This document shows positions 1 through 53,852 of a DNA stretch of 64,000 nucleotides, in pieces. The DNA is taken from the NCBI GenBank assembly GCA_045659785.1, contig JAZRCM010000003.1, positions 31,982 to 95,981 on the forward strand, in the 5' to 3' direction. Positions within the stretch are counted from its first letter, which is position 1, and each line of letters starts with the position of its first letter. Both the position numbers and the translations under genes were made by a program. The notes under the pieces were generated by a model, which was not told the origin of the DNA, searched no databases, and saw nothing but the letters and a program-made list of their open reading frames with translations. This DNA comes from Alphaproteobacteria bacterium. GTDB taxonomy: Bacteria; Pseudomonadota; Alphaproteobacteria; RF32; CAG-239.

Positions 1-1973
1 GAAAAAGCACTTGCTAAAGTTAGGTTATAGCTTCCTTTCCAAATCAGATATGCTATAATTTCACGAACGTTTGTTCTGGCAATGATAACGTTATAGCTTC
101 CTTTCCAAATCAGATATGCTATAATCCTTTGCTAACTCTTTACCATTAACTTTGAGTTATAGCTTCCTTTCCAAATCAGATATGCTATAATGTCAGGAAG
201 CGGAAAGACATACAGAGCTAAGTTATAGCTTCCTTTCCAAATCAGATATGCTATAATATGACAACTTATTTTATAAAAAGATGACTTGTTATAGCTTCCT
301 TTCCAAATCAGATATGCTATAATTTTAAGTCGTGTTAATGGCGTTTCTTTCGCGTTATAGCTTCCTTTCCAAATCAGATATGCTATAATTAAGGAGTCTG
401 CCGAATAACCAATAAGGCAGTTATAGCTTCCTTTCCAAATCAGATATGCTATAATGCTGCTTGTCCGTCAATATCAGCATACCCAGTTATAGCTTCCTTT
501 CCAAATCAGATATGCTATAATAGTTCGGACTTGCTTAAAGGCTCGGCTAAAGTTATAGCTTCCTTTCCAAATCAGATATGCTATAATAAATTCTCGTCTT
601 CAATTTTGACTTCGTTTGTTATAGCTTCCTTTCCAAATCAGATATGCTATAATTATTCGCCAACTGTCCACGATAAACTTAATGTTATAGCTTCCTTTCC
701 AAATCAGATATGCTATAATCATTGAAAACGGAATAACAAATGAAATACTGTTATAGCTTCCTTTCCAAATCAGATATGCTATAATTACCTTTGACCGCCT
801 GTCATTCGTAATAATGTTATAGCTTCCTTTCCAAATCAGATATGCTATAATTATTTGGCTCTTAATGTTTCCGTTTCTTCTGTTATAGCTTCCTTTCCAA
901 ATCAGATATGCTATAATCAAGCAAATGGTGTTGAAGTGCTGTATTACGTTATAGCTTCCTTTCCAAATCAGATATGCTATAATGAAGCCGGAGCGATTGC
1001 GTCATAGATGATTGTTATAGCTTCCTTTCCAAATCAGATATGCTATAATAACCGAAAACAAAACCGTGTATGATTTCAGTTATAGCTTCCTTTCCAAATC
1101 AGATATGCTATAATCTGTTCATTCTTTAACCCTCATATAATCATGTTATAGCTTCCTTTCCAAATCAGATATGCTATAATAAGTGTATTTTTTACTTGGA
1201 CATTTAATTTGTTATAGCTTCCTTTCCAAATCAGATATGCTATAATCTCCTATAAAATTTATGGTTGCCAATAACTGTTATAGCTTCCTTTCCAAATCAG
1301 ATATGCTATAATCAAAGTCATCGTATATATAAAAGAGCTTACGTTATAGCTTCCTTTCCAAATCAGATATGCTATAATACAGTACCGACAAAAGGTGTCT
1401 TCGTATCTGTTATAGCTTCCTTTCCAAATCAGATATGCTATAATACACAACGCACAGACCGCATGCACATATAAGTTATAGCTTCCTTTCCAAATCAGAT
1501 ATGCTATAATGGGAGCAAAAGAAAGGGCGGTAATACCCGAGTTATAGCTTCCTTTCCAAATCAGATATGCTATAATGTGTTCAAAAGTCATCAAATGGAC
1601 GACCACGTTATAGCTTCCTTTCCAAATCAGATATGCTATAATAATCTATCCGCAAAGGCGAGACCGGAACACGTTATAGCTTCCTTTCCAAATCAGATAT
1701 GCTATAATTCACAATGTAATATAACTATATTAATATTAGTTATAGCTTCCTTTCCAAATCAGATATGCTATAATTTCAATTCTTCAACATTCTTATAACC
1801 TACGAGTTATAGCTTCCTTTCCAAATCAGATATGCTATAATAAGTACGGGCAGCTTCTCCAGTTTCCTTGCGTTATAGCTTCCTTTCCAAATCAGATATG
1901 CTATAATTTAATCCGTGAAACGTTGTCATAACATCAAGTTATAGCTTCCTTTCCAAATCAGATATGCTATAAT
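1..1973 (+). CRISPR. CRISPR array with at least 30 identical 36-nt repeats (GTTATAGCTTCCTTTCCAAATCAGATATGCTATAAT), first full repeat at 24..59 and then every 66 nt (30-nt spacers) to the last repeat at 1938..1973. Positions 1..23 look like a partial spacer, so the array continues upstream of the window.
   Basis: Seen directly: exact 66-nt periodicity, identical repeats, unique 30-nt spacers. Each repeat ends in TGcTATAAT, a perfect extended -10 element, which implies + strand transcription from every repeat. I recall the N. meningitidis II-C repeat as GTTGTAGCTCCCTTTCTCATTTCGCAGTGCTACAAT, which is strongly similar. Confidence 0.97.
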
Positions 1974-1984
1974 ACATACAAATT

Positions 1985-2020
1985 AACCTGTTGATTTTTC
2001 AACAGGTTTTCTTCTTTTTT
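1985..2020 (+). terminator. Rho-independent terminator closing the array transcript (stem aacctgttg/caacaggtt followed by a T-run)
   Basis: Perfect 9-bp inverted repeat followed by ttcttctttttt, immediately after the last repeat. Confidence 0.6.
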
Positions 2021-2030
2021 CAATAAAAAA

Positions 2031-2381
2031 TCACAACAATAAAAGCTGTTTATCACCAATTTTTTCCTCTTTTTTTAGTGTTCCAACCAATATCTCCATA
2101 GAAGCATATTGTTTTTCCGTTACTGTCAATAGTCTAACACTTCCTTCTTTTGGAATCAAGGACTTAAGTCGTTTTGCGTGCTTATCCACAGCATCTTGCC
2201 CCTTACAAATTCGAGAATATACTGATAATTGCAGCATTGTATACCCGTCTTTCACTAGGAAATTCCTAAAGCGACTCGCATTTCGTCTATCTGTTTTTGT
2301 CAGCGTCGGAAGATCAAAAAACACTATTATTCGCATATATCTTTCTCCTCCTACTGCCATTTTATCCACAGCCTCAATCAA
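2031..2381 (-). CDS. cas2: CRISPR-associated endoribonuclease Cas2. The true start may be an internal Met (MAVGG... or MRIIVFFDLP...).
   Basis: ~100-aa protein with an MRIIVFFDLP...L.VYSR Cas2-like N-terminal beta-strand. Overlaps the cas1 stop and is adjacent to the array. Confidence 0.85.
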   Translation of the reverse strand: MIEAVDKMAVGGERYMRIIVFFDLPTLTKTDRRNASRFRNFLVKDGYTMLQLSVYSRICKGQDAVDKHAKRLKSLIPKEGSVRLLTVTEKQYASMEILVGTLKKEEKIGDKQLLLL

Positions 2382-3276
2382 AAAGTGGCATTTTTTTTAG
2401 TATGGGTACTTGCAGATATTTTACATCTTTATTTTTTATCGCTTTGACCATACTTATCGCCATCAGTTCACACGATTTTAAAATATTTATTTCTTCATCA
2501 TTTATTATACAGTTTTGAGTTAACACACTCACTAATTCATTTTTTAAAACAGGAGACAACTCTTTCACATCTTCCAAATTAAGTTTATTAACCTGATAAT
2601 CAACAAAAGCTCGATAAGGCTCCATCATATCGTCAACCAAATTAAACTGATTTAATTTATTAGCATGATGAACTCCGAAACAAGGCAATAATCCGGCTCC
2701 AACTACCGCTCGAGCCATACAACCTCGCATAATTGCGTAACCATAATTCAATGCAGAATTTCGAATATCGAAATCATCATTACGATTAAAATTATCAAAT
2801 AAACTTTTCCAATAAACATTTGCAGCAAAAGCTTCTGAATTTTTAGAATCTCCGGACTGCACCTGTTTAGATATTTCTCGCAATTTTTTTGCATTTACAC
2901 AATTAAACAACTCTAAACACATAGCCTGATTATTAATTTTTGCTTTTACAATTTCTTGCCAAATTCTTTTCTTTAATGGCTCTGACATTTCTATCTGATT
3001 CCAAGCAATTTCAGAATATCGAGAATGATTATGAAAAGGAAAAAATGCCCCCGACGGTAAGTGGGAGGCATCTGTTGAAAACATAACTATATTATTATTG
3101 GCAAATTCTGAAATAAGCGAATTATGTAAAGATATTTGTTTATTTTCTAGAATAATAACCGAAATATCTTCTAAAGGAAGTGTCAAACTTTCTCCTTCTA
3201 AGGGTTGATATAAAAGTTGCTTATTCTTTACTGCCAAATGACATGGCTTTGTTATTTGTAAAATTCGCCACCCCAT
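2374..3276 (-). CDS. cas1: CRISPR-associated integrase Cas1 (type II)
   Basis: 300 aa, translationally coupled to cas9 upstream and cas2 downstream. Cas1-like conserved acidic/His residues are present in the C-terminal half. Confidence 0.9.
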   Translation of the reverse strand: MGWRILQITKPCHLAVKNKQLLYQPLEGESLTLPLEDISVIILENKQISLHNSLISEFANNNIVMFSTDASHLPSGAFFPFHNHSRYSEIAWNQIEMSEPLKKRIWQEIVKAKINNQAMCLELFNCVNAKKLREISKQVQSGDSKNSEAFAANVYWKSLFDNFNRNDDFDIRNSALNYGYAIMRGCMARAVVGAGLLPCFGVHHANKLNQFNLVDDMMEPYRAFVDYQVNKLNLEDVKELSPVLKNELVSVLTQNCIINDEEINILKSCELMAISMVKAIKNKDVKYLQVPILKKMPLFD

Positions 3277-3279
3277 ACA

Positions 3280-6200
3280 TTATCCTTTCTGTTGTTTCCT
3301 TTTTGCTCTATCCTCACGACGTTGCCGTTCTGGTTTGATTTTTTGTGAAAATCTTTCTTTTTCTTTATTTATTTTTGTTAAATTTCCAAGTCTATCTATT
3401 GTAAATTTTTGTAATTTTTCAATAACAGATATATTTACTTTCTTTTCCTTATTGATTTTTATATATGGCTTAGTAGTAATATATTTTTTAGTTGTTTTTC
3501 CTTTTTTATCTAATTTTTCTTTAGCCTCAATAACATTGTATTTACCACTACTTGTAATTGAGCGTAAAACACTTTTTTCATTGTCATATTCAACAATCTG
3601 TGCCTCTATTATCTCTTCATCATCAATCTGTACACGAATATAATCTCCTACTTCCAAAGTACTAGTGTTAATTTCATATTCTCTACTACCATTAATACTT
3701 TCTACAAAAATCTGTCCTGTTCCAGAATCATATTGCTTTACATAACCTGTAAATTCTTCTTTCTCCATAGTCAATATCTTAATATAAGACCCTTTGTATA
3801 AACTGAATACAAAATCATCCGCAACAGCCTCCTTTTCAATACCATCTTTTCCAACAGGCTGAATGATATGTTTGAAATTTTTCTTATGCAGATCAATAGC
3901 ATATATAGGTACACAATAATAACCTTCTACCCCATGATATATATCATATCTAAACATTGAATCTAGTTGGACATCTATGGTATTTTGAGCTGCACTTCTC
4001 GTAATAAGTTCATAACCTTTTTTCTTTTTATTAGGTTGTTTGTGAGCTTGCCCAGTTGCGGAACAACGCACCATTTTGGAAACAGTAACTTTTTCAAGAG
4101 ATTCTAAAACTTGTTCTCTAAATCCCACCCAAGGTACTAAATCTTCTTTATTAGAATGTATTCCTTTTTCTTCAAATTGCTTTAACACACTACATATATA
4201 ATAAATATGTCCGAAAGAAGCACATGCTATTACTATAGCATCTTGAGCATGGTGCTTATTATTTTCGTTTCTATTTTTATCAAGCCCCCACATATGACGG
4301 AGTTTAGCGGTTATTCCTCCTCCTAGAACACGTATACGATTAACATCAAGTATAGTATTATTTTGTGATTGTTCAAAACTAAAATATTTACGCAAATATT
4401 CTGCAATATGACGTGTTGCATAACGAGTATTATTCAAATCTCGAGATATAAAATTCTTCATATCTTCTTCGGTAAAACTTTCACGCAATAAATTACGTTT
4501 TTTTGCACTACTCATCTTATTACCACTTAATACTCTTACCTTGAATTTTTGCCATTCTTCCTTTGTTTTAACCTTATCAAAATATTCATATGGGGTACGA
4601 TTTGCCTTTTCTCTATTTGCCAAATTTGAACACAACACCTTATTTTGTAAGCTATCATTAAAAGAGCGACTAATAGGTATAATATGATCAATATCACAGT
4701 CAAATATACTTATTTGATCTGTTGAAGTATTTACACTATTTTCTAAAGATATTCCTTTTCCTGTATATATACACTTAAAATCTTGTTCTTCAGCTAATCT
4801 GAAACGTAGCAAATTATCTCCCTCATCTGGATTAATACTATTTGCTATACACCTTTCTTTTGCAGCATCACGTTGTTCTTTGTAACGTATTTGTCCATTA
4901 TAAATACGAGCGATTTTATCTTTAGAGTTGGCAACATCTGTTGCTAATTCTATATGAATCTCATCTATAACACCATATGTCTTGTTAATAGCATTAACAG
5001 TTTTACGAAATTCTGCAATAATTCGAGATACAGTCGCATTATTCTTAAATGATCCTGTATATGGTTCTATTAAAGTTGTTTTTTCTACTGCTATGTCTCC
5101 ATAACCTAATTCATTTTTAGCATCATTGAATAACATACCATTTGACATTTTGAAATTCAATTCTGATAAAGCTTTACGTGAAAAATGTGTAACTTCCTTC
5201 ATATTTAATTCAAGAATTTTATTAATGATTTCTTCATTATCAATTCCTTTATCTTTCAAATATGAGACACGCATTTCATCTGTTTGATAATATACAAGAG
5301 CTTCTGCTATATCATTTAGCTTGTCTTTAATATCATTAAAAAAGCTTCCTAGGCCTTTTTTTAACATATGGTAACCAGAAAACTCAACAAATATTTCTTT
5401 TTCAAACTGAGCAAGATACTTATCAATTCCTATCTCTGCTTCTGATAAACAGTAGTCCTTCTTAATTATTTCAAAACGGCTATTTTCAGAAATTGATAAT
5501 TGTTTACGTACATCAGAAAAATAATATTTAATTTTTTTTGCATTTACATACTTGTTAAAATATTCATTTGCTTTTGCCTTTAGCTCTTCCCAGCAACTAT
5601 ATTGATATTCACCAGTATTCGTATCGTACAAATTTAATTTTTCATCATTAAATTCTTCCAACTTATCTTTTTCTATTGTAATACTTTTTTCATATTCAGG
5701 ATTAAATTCTCGATATGAACATAAATTAAATCTTTGGCAAACATCTAATTTAAGTAACTGTCGCAAATCGCTAAAAGAAACTTTAACTTTCTTGTTAAGA
5801 GCAAAATCTAATATTTTTTTACGCTCATCATCTTTTAAATCTTCCCTATTTTTTATCTTCAAATTATTTACGCGATTATAAAACGTGAATAGTTCCGCTT
5901 CATAACCATGTTTAGGAAAACGCAGTTCTCCGCGTAGTAACTCGCACTCTCCTATCATTTTTTTGATATTGGTATCATTCAATGGATGAGTGTACATTAA
6001 AACTTCTTTAATATAACGTTCTTCAAACTCTTTAGATAAAATAGTATTACCCTGTCCTCTCTGGAACTCAAAAATCTTATTCACTTCATCTATCAATTCC
6101 GTTCTATATAATGAAATGCCATAATCATCCTTATGATTATGTTTTTTACCTTCTTTGTTAAAAATATACTCCCCTATCGTAGTGCAACCACTCTCTTTAA

Positions 6201-6783
6201 ACTCATTTCTAATAGTTGCAATTCCAAATTTTACTTTTTTATCTTCAGAAGTTTTGTTTTCTTTGGACGGTTCTAATATTTCTTTTTCCTCTGCTTTTGT
6301 TGGAAAATAAAAACCTCTATGATTGGCAATATGATATAATATTCTAAATATTTCTTTTTTTTGCAACTTTTCATATATTGATCGTTTTCTTAATCTCCAT
6401 ATATCCCAATCTTTATCTTTCCAACATGTTGCTTTTTTAGTAGTATTTTGTTCTTTTGGTGCAGAAAATACTTCATTAAAATTAAAATCTTTTGAAATGA
6501 TACCATATTCTTTGGCTAATTTAATAAGGTATCTAAGACGTTCAGCTTTTCGCTCAATAGTCGCTCTTGTTCTGCGCTTCTCTCCTCTATCTGCTAATAA
6601 ACTCTTTCCTGATCTGTCAACAGGTTCATCAAAAACTCTTACTCCACTAGCAACAATCTTTCCATTTTTAATTCGGTACTTAGCCTCATTTTCTTTACCA
6701 TCTAGTAGTTCTTCATCCAAATCAACTACAGCCCAACCGAGTGAGCCTATACCTAAATCTAATCCAAGTACTCTCTTTTTCAT
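3280..6783 (-). CDS. cas9: Cas9 endonuclease, type II-C. Probably ~1167 aa, starting at MKKRVLGLDLGIGSLGWAVV; the ORF track extends 18 codons further upstream.
   Basis: RuvC-I motif (LGLDLGIGSLGWAV) at the N-terminus, an arginine-rich bridge helix (RGEKRRTRATIERKAERLRYL), an HNH motif (DIDHIIPISRSFNDSLQNKVLCSNLANREK) and RuvC-III (HHAQDAIVIA). Followed directly by cas1-cas2 with no csn2 or cas4. Confidence 0.97.
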   Translation of the reverse strand: MKKRVLGLDLGIGSLGWAVVDLDEELLDGKENEAKYRIKNGKIVASGVRVFDEPVDRSGKSLLADRGEKRRTRATIERKAERLRYLIKLAKEYGIISKDFNFNEVFSAPKEQNTTKKATCWKDKDWDIWRLRKRSIYEKLQKKEIFRILYHIANHRGFYFPTKAEEKEILEPSKENKTSEDKKVKFGIATIRNEFKESGCTTIGEYIFNKEGKKHNHKDDYGISLYRTELIDEVNKIFEFQRGQGNTILSKEFEERYIKEVLMYTHPLNDTNIKKMIGECELLRGELRFPKHGYEAELFTFYNRVNNLKIKNREDLKDDERKKILDFALNKKVKVSFSDLRQLLKLDVCQRFNLCSYREFNPEYEKSITIEKDKLEEFNDEKLNLYDTNTGEYQYSCWEELKAKANEYFNKYVNAKKIKYYFSDVRKQLSISENSRFEIIKKDYCLSEAEIGIDKYLAQFEKEIFVEFSGYHMLKKGLGSFFNDIKDKLNDIAEALVYYQTDEMRVSYLKDKGIDNEEIINKILELNMKEVTHFSRKALSELNFKMSNGMLFNDAKNELGYGDIAVEKTTLIEPYTGSFKNNATVSRIIAEFRKTVNAINKTYGVIDEIHIELATDVANSKDKIARIYNGQIRYKEQRDAAKERCIANSINPDEGDNLLRFRLAEEQDFKCIYTGKGISLENSVNTSTDQISIFDCDIDHIIPISRSFNDSLQNKVLCSNLANREKANRTPYEYFDKVKTKEEWQKFKVRVLSGNKMSSAKKRNLLRESFTEEDMKNFISRDLNNTRYATRHIAEYLRKYFSFEQSQNNTILDVNRIRVLGGGITAKLRHMWGLDKNRNENNKHHAQDAIVIACASFGHIYYICSVLKQFEEKGIHSNKEDLVPWVGFREQVLESLEKVTVSKMVRCSATGQAHKQPNKKKKGYELITRSAAQNTIDVQLDSMFRYDIYHGVEGYYCVPIYAIDLHKKNFKHIIQPVGKDGIEKEAVADDFVFSLYKGSYIKILTMEKEEFTGYVKQYDSGTGQIFVESINGSREYEINTSTLEVGDYIRVQIDDEEIIEAQIVEYDNEKSVLRSITSSGKYNVIEAKEKLDKKGKTTKKYITTKPYIKINKEKKVNISVIEKLQKFTIDRLGNLTKINKEKERFSQKIKPERQRREDRAKRKQQKG

Positions 6784-6849
6784 TTTTAACACCCATATAA
6801 AAATTATCTTGACTACAACTTTAGCATTTGCTATCAATAAAGCAAGATA

Positions 6850-6974
6850 TTTTTAATTGTATTGTCTGATTTGGAAAGGAAGCATTATAACAATTGAAAA
6901 TTTCTTATCGAAATTTTTCGAGTGGGGCCCTGGCGATAGTCAACTTGTTTGATGTGTAGCCATCCCCTTTTTTG
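6850..6974 (+). ncRNA. tracrRNA candidate, divergent from cas9. Anti-repeat at ~6861..6891 (ATTGTCTGATTTGGAAAGGAAGCATTATAAC), then a small hairpin and a 3' G/C-rich hairpin ending in a T6 run at 6968..6973.
   Basis: 19 contiguous nt (TCTGATTTGGAAAGGAAGC) plus flanking partial matches are complementary to the CRISPR repeat, with a bulge. Orientation is compatible with + strand crRNAs. A possible promoter sits upstream (TTGACT 6809..6814, then a TGcTATCAAT-like -10). Confidence 0.75.
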
Positions 6975-6978
6975 ATAC

Positions 6979-7010
6979 AAAAAAACAGGCCGGAGCCTGT
7001 TATTTTTGTG
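6979..7010. terminator. Bidirectional hairpin terminator (acaggc-cgga-gcctgt) with A-run and T-run flanks, shared by tracrRNA read-through and the convergent membrane-protein gene
   Basis: aaaaaaacaggccggagcctgttatttttgtg. Confidence 0.5.
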
Positions 7011-7971
7011 TTATTTCTTTTAACATTTTGCGGCGACGAACACCTAAATATGTTTCATACCCCACTAGAGCAACTGCCGAAACTATCAACGGCAATAAAT
7101 AGTATATAATTCGATATGCAATCAAAGCTCCGAATAACATTAAGCGGTCATTATCGCCAGGAATTATGAACATAAACAATCCTTCAAAAACTCCCAATCC
7201 ACCCGGAACCTGACTAAATACACCCAGTACTTGAGCAATAATAAACACTCCCATAAATGTCATAAATTCGATATGCACAAACGGAATAAGCACAAAATAC
7301 AGCACCAATGACGCCATAACAATATCAATCGCTCCCAAGAGCATTTGAGCCAAAGCCATTGAGAAAGAAGGCATATCCAATGAAACACCTTTTACATCTA
7401 TCGGTTTTTTATAAAAAATGCTTAATCCGAAATAGCCTAACAAACCGACAAATGACAACAAAGTCACAATTTGAGTTGTAAATTTAGAAACAGTTCCGGC
7501 TCCGATTGCTTGTGACGGAGTTAAGAGATAACCGACAATAATCAAAAAGAAACAAGCAACTAAATATGTAAATCCTGAAAACGTAACCATACGAACAATT
7601 TCTGTCGCTCTGAAACGCCAACGAGTATATAAACGATATCTTATTGTTCCACCGGAAACAATCGCATGTCCTGCATTATTACTCACCGAAAAACCGATAA
7701 ATCCGGCAAACACCCATTTCCAAATTGCAACACGTCGTTTTATGTAACGAAGCGCCAAATAATCGTATGAAGACAAAGCAATATATCCGCCAAAAGAGGC
7801 TAATCCGGCCATAATCAAATTTTTATGCGGAATATCCAACAACGCATTTTTTATATCTTCCAAACTATATTTCGAAAGCTGATGATAAAGCATATACGCA
7901 GCCAAGGCAAAGAAAAATAATCCTGCCCATGAAACAGCTTTCTTTAATACTCTTTTGGTTTGAAATGCCAT
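7000..7971 (-). CDS. Polytopic membrane protein, flippase-like / lysylphosphatidylglycerol-synthase transmembrane-domain family
   Basis: 323 aa with ~8 predicted TM helices. The family assignment is from memory of the LPG_synthase_TM domain pattern. Confidence 0.45.
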   Translation of the reverse strand: MAFQTKRVLKKAVSWAGLFFFALAAYMLYHQLSKYSLEDIKNALLDIPHKNLIMAGLASFGGYIALSSYDYLALRYIKRRVAIWKWVFAGFIGFSVSNNAGHAIVSGGTIRYRLYTRWRFRATEIVRMVTFSGFTYLVACFFLIIVGYLLTPSQAIGAGTVSKFTTQIVTLLSFVGLLGYFGLSIFYKKPIDVKGVSLDMPSFSMALAQMLLGAIDIVMASLVLYFVLIPFVHIEFMTFMGVFIIAQVLGVFSQVPGGLGVFEGLFMFIIPGDNDRLMLFGALIAYRIIYYLLPLIVSAVALVGYETYLGVRRRKMLKEITQK

Positions 7972-8029
7972 TTATCAACTCCATTAATTTTCTAAATATA
8001 TAATCACTAATTACTAAAAGATTATAAAC

Positions 8030-8869
8030 TTAATAAAAAAAATCTAATAAAATTCCGCTCACAACCGCTGAAACATATAAAATCGCCACAATTTTAAGAT
8101 TTTCGTTTCGGTTATGATTAATCCTAAACAAAACCAAAAGACCTACCCCTGCTCCCGATAATGTTCCCGCCATCATAGAACCAAAACTCATCGCACCGTC
8201 AATATATAATTGCGTAATTGCTACAGATGCGGAACAATTCGGAACCAAACCGACAAAAGCGGATGTAATCGGACCTAAAATCGGTCGATTAAAAACAATA
8301 TCATTCAAAAAACTTTCGCCTAATATGGTCAATAGTCCATTAAGAGCCAACGTTACCAACAACACAAAAATTGTTATCTTAAAGGAATGAATTAATGCCG
8401 GCTTTATAATTCCGCCACCATCACAGTGACAGTCTTCTTGCTCACATAAAGTTTCAACATCAACCGGCAACGGAGATTTTCGAAAAGCAACATCACACAG
8501 TAAGCCGAAAAATATTCCTAAAAACAACTTTATCGCTAATATTTTTACAATCAATATAGGTTCAACCGTATTAGAAATTAAAATCGGCAACATCTCATCT
8601 GAGGTTGTCAAAAACACGGCAATCAATGTACCTAACGAAATTGCTTTTACCGCATAAAAGTTCGAAGCCGCAGCGGCAAAACCGCATTGAGGTAACAATC
8701 CGGCAAATGCTCCGGCGATTGTTCCTAATTTTCCTGCTTTTCCGATTAGATTAAGTGATTTTTCCGATGATTTTTTCTCTAACCATTCCAATAATAAATA
8801 CGTCAGAAATAAAAAAGGAAAAACCTTCAATGCACTAAAAAAACTATGTATTATCATTTCAATTAACAA
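8030..8869 (-). CDS. COG0701-like permease (ArsP/YraQ-like) with duplicated Cys motifs and a Cys/His-rich loop
   Basis: Two repeated halves containing LPQCGF and VPNCSAS motifs. The central loop CEQEDCHCDGGG suggests metal or metalloid binding. Confidence 0.4.
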   Translation of the reverse strand: MLIEMIIHSFFSALKVFPFLFLTYLLLEWLEKKSSEKSLNLIGKAGKLGTIAGAFAGLLPQCGFAAAASNFYAVKAISLGTLIAVFLTTSDEMLPILISNTVEPILIVKILAIKLFLGIFFGLLCDVAFRKSPLPVDVETLCEQEDCHCDGGGIIKPALIHSFKITIFVLLVTLALNGLLTILGESFLNDIVFNRPILGPITSAFVGLVPNCSASVAITQLYIDGAMSFGSMMAGTLSGAGVGLLVLFRINHNRNENLKIVAILYVSAVVSGILLDFFY

Positions 8870-10245
8870 TTAATGTTTGTAGCAAGTCCGGCTAATGATG
8901 TTTCTTTATACTTTGAACTCAAACTCAAACCGGTTTCATACATTGTTTTAATAATGTTATCAAGACTGACAATATGCGGACCATTAGGATTGCGCATAGC
9001 TAAACGAGCCGCATTAACCGCTTTAACTGCCCCCATTGCATTACGTTCAATACATGGTACCTGAACAAGTCCTTTAATCGGGTCACAGGTCAAACCTAAA
9101 TTGTGCTCCATTGCAATTTCCGCAGCATTTTCAATTTGACGTAAATTACCACCCAAAACTGCAACCAAACCACCGGCGGCCATAGAACACGCAACTCCTA
9201 TTTCGCCCTGACATCCGACTTCGGCACCGGAAATAGAGGCATTTGTACGATATAAACTGCAAATAGCAGAAGCTGTTGTCAAAAATACTATATTGGCTTT
9301 TTCTAAACTAAAAGGTGATTTTTGAATTGCAAAACGTTGATAATAGCGCATAACAGCCGGGAGAACGCCTGCAGATCCCATTGTCGGAGCGGTAACGATT
9401 TTACCTCCACAAGCATTTTCTTCTGCAACAGCAAATGCCCATAAATTAATCCAATCAACAATCATCAATGCATCAACATTGTTTTCGGCAAATTTTGTAG
9501 TTAAATCATTATAGATTCCGGCAGCTCGTCTTTTCAATTTTAATCCGCCGGGCAAAATTCCCTCAATTTTAACACCTCTGTCAACCGTTGCCTGCATAAT
9601 ATCGGCAATACGCAAAATTTCTTTTCTGACTTTAGCGGGAGATTGTAATTTTTGTTCGTTTTTCAGCACCAATTCTGATATTGTTAATTGGTCTTTATGA
9701 CACATTTCTAAAAGTTCTTTACAACTATTAAATTGGTACGGAACTTTATATGGCTTACGTTCAATTCGTTGTGTCATTTCATCTTGGCGAGCAATGGTAC
9801 CACCGCCAACGGAAAAATATGTTTCTTCCAAAATGATATTATCGTTGCCGTCATAGGCCGTAATTTTCATACCGTTTGAATGTTCGGGAAGAAATATTTT
9901 TTTCTCTAAAATTATATCTTCATCAAAATTAAAATCGATAACCGATTTTCCGCCTAAATTAAGTTTTTTGCTTTCCTTAACCTGTCCGATATAATCAATA
10001 TCCAAATCTATATTTTGTGCTTCAAGCCCCATCAAACCATAGACAACCGCGTTTAACGTTCCGTGTCCTAATCCGGTCAAAGCCAAAGAACCGTACAAAG
10101 TTGTTTTGACAGTTTTGACATTATTCAAATCTGTTTTTTCTGCCAAATTATCTACATATCTTTTTGCTGCTCTCATCGGACCAACCGTATGAGAACTTGA
10201 CGGACCGATTCCTACCGAAAAAATTTCAAACAAACTATAATACAT
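8863..10245 (-). CDS. sdaA: L-serine dehydratase, single-chain iron-sulfur type
   Basis: N-terminal [19 protein letters not shown] signature and 460 aa length. Confidence 0.85.
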
Positions 10246-53314: not shown

Positions 53315-53402
53315 ACAAAAAAGGAGGTATAAAGACCTCCTTCTTTTATGCAAAAAAAAGAGGAGCAGATGCCCCTCTCTTTTCAATTTTTACAACTGTC
53401 CT

Positions 53403-53852
53403 TTACTTGCCGTAGATAACAATGTAAAGGTCTTTCGAACCAGAGCTGTTTTTATGATAAGCCCAGGTCCACTTGTATTTAACAAGAGGTTCGTCCAGAT
53501 TAGCAAAACCTTCAGGTTTCCAATCGAATTTAGCACGATCTTCTTCCTTTATCGCAGGAACAACCTCTACTGTACGACCAACGACTTTTAGCGTCATATC
53601 TCCGGCCACTACATAGTAATTGCCCTCTGCATCCTTTGCCTGTGCCACATCAGCCCAGTCAGAAGTCTGTTCTCCGGTTACTTTGAAAGCCTGCAAGAAC
53701 TTCACCTCCTTGAACTCGCTCATGTCAGTCTTAATAACTGTGCCTTCATCATTAACTGTTAACGTAATACCGTTAACTTTGATGTAATCCCCCGCAAAAG
53801 CAGAAGTTACACAAGCACATACACACACGAGAATTGCAAAAATTTTCTTCAT
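53403..53852 (-). CDS. Secreted hypothetical protein with anomalously high G+C (149 aa)
   Basis: Signal peptide MKKIFAILVCVCACVTSAFA. Codon usage and G+C are clearly unlike neighbouring genes. Confidence 0.55.
   Translation of the reverse strand: MKKIFAILVCVCACVTSAFAGDYIKVNGITLTVNDEGTVIKTDMSEFKEVKFLQAFKVTGEQTSDWADVAQAKDAEGNYYVVAGDMTLKVVGRTVEVVPAIKEEDRAKFDWKPEGFANLDEPLVKYKWTWAYHKNSSGSKDLYIVIYGK

Follow-up and report, generated by a model that had tools for sequence, protein, structure and literature searches.

We describe here an element that very probably encodes the tracrRNA of a type II-C Cas9 system, lying at 6844-6973 on the + strand of a 64,000-nucleotide stretch of DNA (the window). 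The original prediction had placed a divergently transcribed tracrRNA candidate upstream of cas9, and this is supported here by 12 other loci in which the same order and orientation were found. A gene for a tracrRNA, a helper RNA that base-pairs with CRISPR RNAs and brings them into Cas9, is to be expected in such a system and, since most anti-repeats of type II-A and II-C loci lie upstream of cas9 (Chylinski 2013, PMC3737331), the finding is in itself unsurprising; its novelty is only that of a sequence family. The CRISPR locus presents the following features.

24..1973, + strand: CRISPR array of at least 30 identical 36-nt repeats (GTTATAGCTTCCTTTCCAAATCAGATATGCTATAAT) and 29-31-nt spacers
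3' end of every repeat of the array, + strand: extended -10 TGCTATAAT
1985..2020, no strand assigned: hairpin terminator between the array and cas2, with the stronger T run on the + strand
2031..2381, - strand: cas2 (ORF and Pfam Cas2)
2374..3276, - strand: cas1 (ORF and Pfam Cas1)
3280..6783, - strand: cas9, 1167 aa from the ATG at 6783 (Pfam HNH and RuvC)
7000-7971, - strand: membrane-protein gene upstream of the tracrRNA (Pfam)

The window opens inside the array, which continues beyond the window start. The cas operon consists of cas9, cas1 and cas2, a fourth cas gene being absent from the ORFs and Pfam matches; as neither csn2 nor cas4 was found at the locus by these means, the system is type II-C. 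Homologous Cas9 proteins align from residue 1 at the ATG at 6783 (beginning MKKRVLGLDLGIGS) and, for this reason, the public 1185-aa Cas9 gene call (P0001, TTG start at 6837) is probably an 18-codon over-extension into the tracrRNA promoter. Similarly, the true start of cas2 is probably an ATG near 2360, its homologues being 109 aa long. The genes flanking the locus (LPG_synthase_TM-like, ArsP_2 and serine dehydratase by Pfam) are unrelated to CRISPR, and a bidirectional terminator hairpin with T runs on both sides (AACAGGCCGGAGCCTGTT, 6984-7001) lies between the tracrRNA and the 7000-7971 (-) gene. Homologues of the window Cas9 were found only in metagenomes and metagenome-assembled genomes, at no more than 71% identity; the records of the nearest relatives are labelled Alphaproteobacteria or Pseudomonadota, and several derive from metagenomes of the gut or human gut. 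Among solved structures, the nearest are Cas9 chains of 1082-1095 residues, presumably those of the Nme/Geo (Geobacillus) Cas9 group; the window Cas9 is longer (1167 aa) and distant from them (279 bits, mainly over residues 498-898).

The tracrRNA gene and its neighbourhood can be divided as follows.

6809..6814, + strand: -35 hexamer TTGACT (TTGACA at the same position in the other loci)
6829..6837, + strand: extended -10 TG-c-TATCAA (TGcTATCAA(T) spans 6829-6838)
6844..6973, + strand: predicted primary tracrRNA of about 130 nt, its start taken from the promoter geometry and its end from the U tract
6844..6860, + strand: conserved 5' leader, predicted to form helix P0 with 6891-6907 in the free RNA
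6859..6891, + strand: anti-repeat, complementary to the CRISPR repeat
6859-6864, + strand: wobbly extension GTAT-G, extending the duplex through wobble pairs
6865-6883, + strand: perfect 19-mer TCTGATTTGGAAAGGAAGC, exact reverse complement of repeat positions 7-25
6884-6885, + strand: AT bulge, unmatched in the duplex
6886-6891, + strand: lower-stem strand TATAAC, complementary to repeat positions 1-6
6884..6892, - strand: TGTTATAAT, a perfect extended -10 within the anti-repeat lower stem and AT bulge; candidate cas9 promoter element
6894..6921, + strand: stem-loop 1, in the nexus position (UUGAAAAUUUC / loop UUAUC / GAAAUUUUUCGA)
6924..6973, + strand: stem-loop 2 and intrinsic terminator (GGGG:CCCC, UGGC:GCCA, inner hairpin, U6)

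The repeat, which reads GUUAUAGC... on the + strand of the array, and the anti-repeat form a duplex made of a 6-bp lower stem, the 2-nt AT bulge, 19 perfect pairs and the wobbly extension, with 25 Watson-Crick pairs altogether. Its energy in RNAduplex was -41.2 kcal/mol, to be compared with a background of -9.6 +/- 3.4 kcal/mol over 24,801 50-nt windows taken from both strands outside the array. No second anti-repeat was found by RNAduplex outside the array in the 64 kb, the other strong scores overlapping the last array repeat. Thus, the proposed bulged anti-repeat to the + strand repeat was recovered at 6859-6891 as a unique match, and folding of the duplex in silico, as had been suggested, agreed with the predicted architecture: a co-fold of a spacer-repeat RNA with 6844-6973 yielded the canonical bulged duplex followed by AA, stem-loop 1, a GU linker, stem-loop 2 and U6. 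The arms of stem-loop 1 are 6894-6904 and 6910-6921 and, in stem-loop 2, GGGG (6924-6927) pairs with CCCC (6964-6967) immediately before T6 (6968-6973); the small hairpin and the G/C hairpin ending in T6 of the original prediction were therefore correctly positioned. In sequence, the tail is presumably unrelated to that of the Nme tracrRNA, reading AAUCGAAAAUUUCGAGUGGGG... here and AAGGCCGUCUG... there.

A promoter-like sequence, TTGACT ... TGcTATCAAT, had been proposed at 6809..6845. Both hexamers are present, and they are separated in the window by exactly 17 nt. A consensus promoter scan missed this + strand promoter because its imperfect -10 hexamer, TATCAA, terminates in A, a defect for which the TG two bases upstream may compensate. 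The arrangement was nonetheless constant in the comparative set presented below, in which TTGACA (TTGACT in the window), the 17-nt spacing and a TAnnnT hexamer were found in 13/13 loci. From this promoter geometry, and from a AAGAAAUUUUU conserved across the 13 loci about 6 nt past the -10 (AAGAAA, 6-7 nt past it in our reading), we infer a start at about 6844, divergent from cas9 and 61 nt from its ATG.

Rfam release 15, searched with positions 1-9000 at E <= 1, returned only CRISPR-DR34, and this on the repeats alone; the match was weak (26 bits), the consensus (GUUgUAGCUCCCUUUC...GCUAcAAU) being alike and presumably resembling the N. meningitidis repeat. The tracrRNA had no match to any tracrRNA family in that search, and the element thus belongs to no curated tracrRNA sequence family. 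At the gathering score, the whole 64 kb matched no Rfam family, i.e. no tRNA, rRNA or riboswitch, and the repeat and tracrRNA strings were found in no paper of the searchable literature.

We collected related elements from the contigs of Cas9 homologues and from metagenome contigs scanned with a motif taken from the element (TTTGGAAAG N15-45 TCGAGTGGGG). The motif was too loose, since it retrieved at least 120 loci of which 8 were true among the matches listed. Altogether, the contigs of the Cas9 homologues and the motif matches listed gave 13 distinct copies (the window and 12 other loci), each of them at a cas9 gene and divergent from it. The close divergent arrangement is shared with 11 of the 12 related loci, the exception being L047, which carries a 4.2-kb insert between cas9 and the tracrRNA. 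The order and orientation of promoter, anti-repeat, small hairpin and terminator hairpin were the same across the 13 loci, even though the Cas9s of the 12 related loci are 30-71% identical.

These alignments also gave support to the RNA structure. Without guidance, RNAalifold arrived at stem-loop 1 and at a stem-loop 2 composed of GGGG:CCCC, UGAC:GUCA plus an inner hairpin, with compensatory changes in 8 of the 18 predicted pairs. When scored directly, the tail structure named above had 95.9% of its cells paired, versus 45-72% when the partners were slid by 1-3 columns, and its covariation score was reached by 0 of 500 shuffles. All cells of stem-loop 1 were paired across the 13 sequences, with one compensatory change (G:C to A:U) and several wobble changes, and both sides had changed in three pairs out of the four that make up the UGAC:GUCA helix. 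In this helix the window carries UGGC:GCCA, a G:C replacing the A:U of most relatives, while L003 and L009 alter other pairs; in L003, CCCC is not immediately followed by a U tract. When a covariance model was constructed from the 13 copies, the window gave a single full-length match (6843-6975, 110 bits), a score that is partly by construction because the window sequence is one of the 13 used for training. The other matches in the window were weak and involved the model's anti-repeat portion, on the strand opposite to the array repeats; a marginal one at 53352-53435 (-) was rejected as a gene terminator. The comparative set therefore represents a putative tracrRNA family whose structure is supported by covariation and for which Rfam holds no model.

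The anti-repeat co-varies with its cognate repeat. Two or three positions distinguish the repeat of L011, and likewise that of L001, from the window repeat, and the differences are compensated in the respective anti-repeats: cognate duplexes ranged from -40.6 to -44.9 kcal/mol versus -30.6 to -35.6 kcal/mol for non-cognate ones, the cognate advantage in L011 and L001 being 5-14 kcal/mol. This bears on the possibility that the element is a degenerate, inverted orphan repeat left without function by an array rearrangement, an idea in keeping with the view that tracrRNA genes derive from degenerate repeats (PMC3737331). We regard it as extremely unlikely, as an anti-repeat that tracks the changes of the repeat, the compensatory changes of the tail and the retention at cas9, in 13 loci, of the element together with promoter, tail and terminator despite Cas9 divergence to 30-71% are not what such a remnant would show. 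Moreover, a type II system needs a tracrRNA, and the element is the only anti-repeat in the 64 kb.

A second explanation, which we consider very unlikely, is that the element acts mainly on the - strand, as a repeat-derived cas9 promoter or 5' UTR element, and that the + strand RNA is incidental. Read on the cas9 strand, the anti-repeat does look like a repeat. In most loci, the cas9 ATG lies 25-30 nt from the tracrRNA -35 (25 nt in the window), so that the cas9 promoter must overlap the tracrRNA gene, and the sole promoter called between 6600 and 7200 is in fact on the - strand (TCGATA, 16 nt, TATAAT with TG, 6911-6884). In addition, TGTTATAAT or a close variant occurs at the same site in most loci of the Cas9 lineage to which the window belongs. 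However, the -10-like hexamer is absent in L001 and weak in the other Cas9 lineage (lineage B, see below), and the sequence is for the most part imposed by having to complement GTTATA, the 5' end of the repeat, for which reason we list TGTTATAAT as a candidate only. A - strand reading would also leave unexplained the conserved + strand promoter, the compensated stem-loops and the U tract, and the G:U pairs of the duplex, of stem-loops 1 and 2 and of P0 would become A-C mismatches. A - strand promoter role and the tracrRNA role can co-exist. Outside the array, the window contains only three motifs of this kind, TGTTATAAT being one.

The direction in which the array is transcribed was considered next to the pairing, as the guide-RNA architecture proposed originally assumed a + strand repeat. 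Transcription on the + strand is favoured by the wobble pairs of the duplex and by the extended -10 of each repeat, in line with that assumption. Owing to its G:U pairs, the + sense duplex exceeded the opposite-sense one in stability by 2-11 kcal/mol in each of the 7 loci that have an array, and the arrays on related contigs are oriented with respect to the element just as the window array is. All 30 of 30 window repeats terminate in TGNTATAAT, a perfect extended -10 on the + strand, and variants of TGCTATAAT are present in the repeats of the relatives. In L003, L011 and L038, the degenerate cas-distal repeat keeps this promoter part, as TGCTATA(A/C)T or a TATAAT box; this repeat, the first one in crRNA orientation, has a degenerate 5' part and an intact 3' box. 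Repeat degeneracy as a rule for direction has been found to give the wrong answer for Neisseria and Campylobacter arrays (Chylinski 2013, PMC3737331). The hairpin that follows the array, whose position at the array/cas2 boundary is conserved in related loci, has a strong T run and lends weak support to + strand transcription, weak because it also passes a lenient terminator scan on the other strand.

That last observation, and the fact that type II arrays are often co-directional with the cas genes, would agree with the array being transcribed on the - strand together with the cas operon, the functional partner then being a repeat-like RNA of the - strand in the cas9 5' UTR. This we find extremely unlikely as well. 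The opposite-sense duplexes were the weaker ones in 7/7 loci, the "tail" on the - strand would be the tracrRNA promoter region, which is conserved at two hexamers only and has no terminator, and it is on the + strand that an extended -10 closes every repeat. Furthermore, the type II-C arrays of Nme and Cje are known to run opposite to the cas operon (PMC3737331). Protospacers gave no further clue: blastn of the whole array against isolate phages yielded only two weak matches (85-88%), three spacers searched as exact patterns in IMG/VR yielded none usable, and the 166 spacers of all arrays matched only themselves among all fetched loci, so that neither a PAM nor a target-based check of crRNA orientation was obtained. 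In comparisons between sister contigs, the spacer-acquiring end of the array was not discernible.

By analogy with the type II-C systems of N. meningitidis as well as C. jejuni, this array would be read on the + strand, in the direction of cas2. In those systems, crRNAs begin within the spacers, at promoters carried by the repeats (PMC5965381) and, likewise, short crRNAs would probably start here about 7 nt into each spacer from the TGCTATAAT of the preceding repeat, leaving about 23-24 nt as guide. Pairing of the repeat with the anti-repeat would involve its 5' 25-30 nt and give a 6-bp lower stem, a 2-nt bulge in the tracrRNA strand and an upper stem of at least 19 bp, which RNase III may trim, and Cas9 would bind the duplex and stem-loops 1 and 2 to form the DNA-targeting complex. 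An sgRNA made of the guide, repeat positions 1-22, GAAA and 6868-6973 should accordingly be functional if this scheme holds. The tracrRNA would complete the parts list of an uncharacterised 1167-aa type II-C Cas9 from an uncultured bacterium and its definition makes it possible to write down a dual-RNA or sgRNA scaffold and to put the enzyme directly to the test.

The N. meningitidis type II-C system (Zhang et al. 2013 via PMC5965381; PMC3737331) resembles the window in its minimal cas9-cas1-cas2 operon, in the same kind of 36-nt repeats with an extended -10 at each 3' end, in an array convergent with the cas operon, and in an anti-repeat upstream of cas9 whose duplex is followed by two stem-loops, the second being the terminator. 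The S. pyogenes type II-A tracrRNA (Deltcheva 2011 via PMC5965381) is similarly located upstream of cas9 on the opposite strand and has the same layout of lower stem, bulge, upper stem, nexus and terminator hairpin. That system differs from the window in an array co-directional with the cas genes, a leader promoter, the presence of csn2 and obligatory RNase III processing. There is no sequence similarity between the two tracrRNAs, and the Rfam search gave no match to a tracrRNA family.

Comparison of the Cas9 proteins beside the 13 elements disclosed two lineages. Lineage A includes the window, L002, L003, L008, L013, L011 and L001 (47-71% mutual identity, 1115-1219 aa), and L006 and L009 were assigned to it by their identity of about 64% to the window Cas9. 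Lineage B comprises L038, L070, L047 and L095 (57-75% mutual identity, 998-1071 aa), with cas9 genes at the following positions.

L038, 4955-7951, - strand: lineage B cas9, 998 aa
L095, 8633-11788, + strand: lineage B cas9
L047, 523-3738, - strand: lineage B cas9
L070, start at 3740, - strand: lineage B cas9

Identity between the lineages was 30-41%, and lineage B was nearer to the solved Cas9s of 1082-1095 residues (516 bits) than to lineage A. In contrast with this divergence, Cas1 (67-78%) and Cas2 (77-95%) were similar irrespective of the Cas9 lineage, and identity of the tracrRNA to that of the window was 60-75% in lineage A and 54-68% in lineage B. The repeat of L038, the sole lineage B locus with an array on its contig, differs from that of the window by one base. 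Judging from these sequences, a single putative tracrRNA family, together with its repeat and Cas1-Cas2, accompanies two Cas9 lineages. Since Cas9 and its dual RNA usually co-evolve (Fonfara 2014, PMC3936727), a guide RNA shared in this manner departs, at the sequence level, from the usual pattern. If confirmed, it would be an exception to that co-evolution, and one guide format could serve nucleases that possibly differ in PAM.

The 5' leader (AAGAAAUUUUUGAU) has no partner in the repeat and is nevertheless as conserved as the anti-repeat. In the minimum-free-energy fold of the free RNA, its partner in 13/13 sequences was formed by the linker together with the 5' arm of stem-loop 1. The resulting helix, P0 (6844-6860 with 6891-6907), encloses the anti-repeat core in its loop, and no more than 1-3 nt separate its beginning from the predicted transcription start. 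It comprised 10-16 bp with energies of -8.3 to -14.5 kcal/mol, versus about -3 to -4 kcal/mol for shuffled leaders, of which 0 to 6 of 300 matched P0. The proportion of P0 cells paired was 87%, to be compared with 37-64% when the partner was slid by 1-3 columns, and none of 500 shuffles reached its covariation score. Changes that preserve the helix can be read from the sequences (G:C to A:U in the window; A:U to U:A in L013), the A-to-G changes of the leader are each opposite a U, and L002 and L009 display a register shift compensated on both sides. In 11 of the 13 sequences, the stability of P0 on the tracrRNA strand exceeded that on the cas9 strand by 4-11 kcal/mol. We know of no description of such a helix in Nme.

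P0 and stem-loop 1 are mutually exclusive and, in the co-fold with crRNA, the open form wins, which makes a switch from a closed to an open form plausible. P0 would then block the nexus-like stem-loop 1, and only its opening by pairing with the repeat would create the scaffold to which Cas9 binds. We put forward tentatively, as a possibility that we rate as doubtful when taken as a whole, that the primary tracrRNA is closed and self-inhibited through P0, that crRNA pairing opens it, making the loading of Cas9 crRNA-dependent, and that this one RNA scaffold serves both Cas9 lineages.

The S. pyogenes long-form tracrRNA (bioRxiv 10.1101/2020.05.21.102756) also has a 5' part that folds back, and its gene overlaps the cas9 promoter region. 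The leader in the window differs from it in being about 20 nt long and in pairing with the linker and the stem-loop 1 arm, instead of with the anti-repeat lower stem as a crRNA repeat does. Workman et al. (bioRxiv 10.1101/2020.05.21.102756) described tracrRNA autoregulation as conserved in type II-A loci, II-C loci being unmentioned. The leader was considered as a "natural single guide" of that kind and rejected, as the predicted folds lack a repeat-like lower stem and the PAM is undefined; no targeting segment with a PAM-flanked site was identified in the window leader.

Finally, a three-gene module was observed twice near these loci, encoding an adenosine-deaminase-domain protein (718-815 aa), a 233-aa protein without Pfam match and a serine resolvase. 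It lies between cas9 and the tracrRNA in L047 (3842-7867) and just past the array in L003/L004 (about 6450-9765), and could represent a cassette, mobile or defensive, that accompanies these CRISPR loci.
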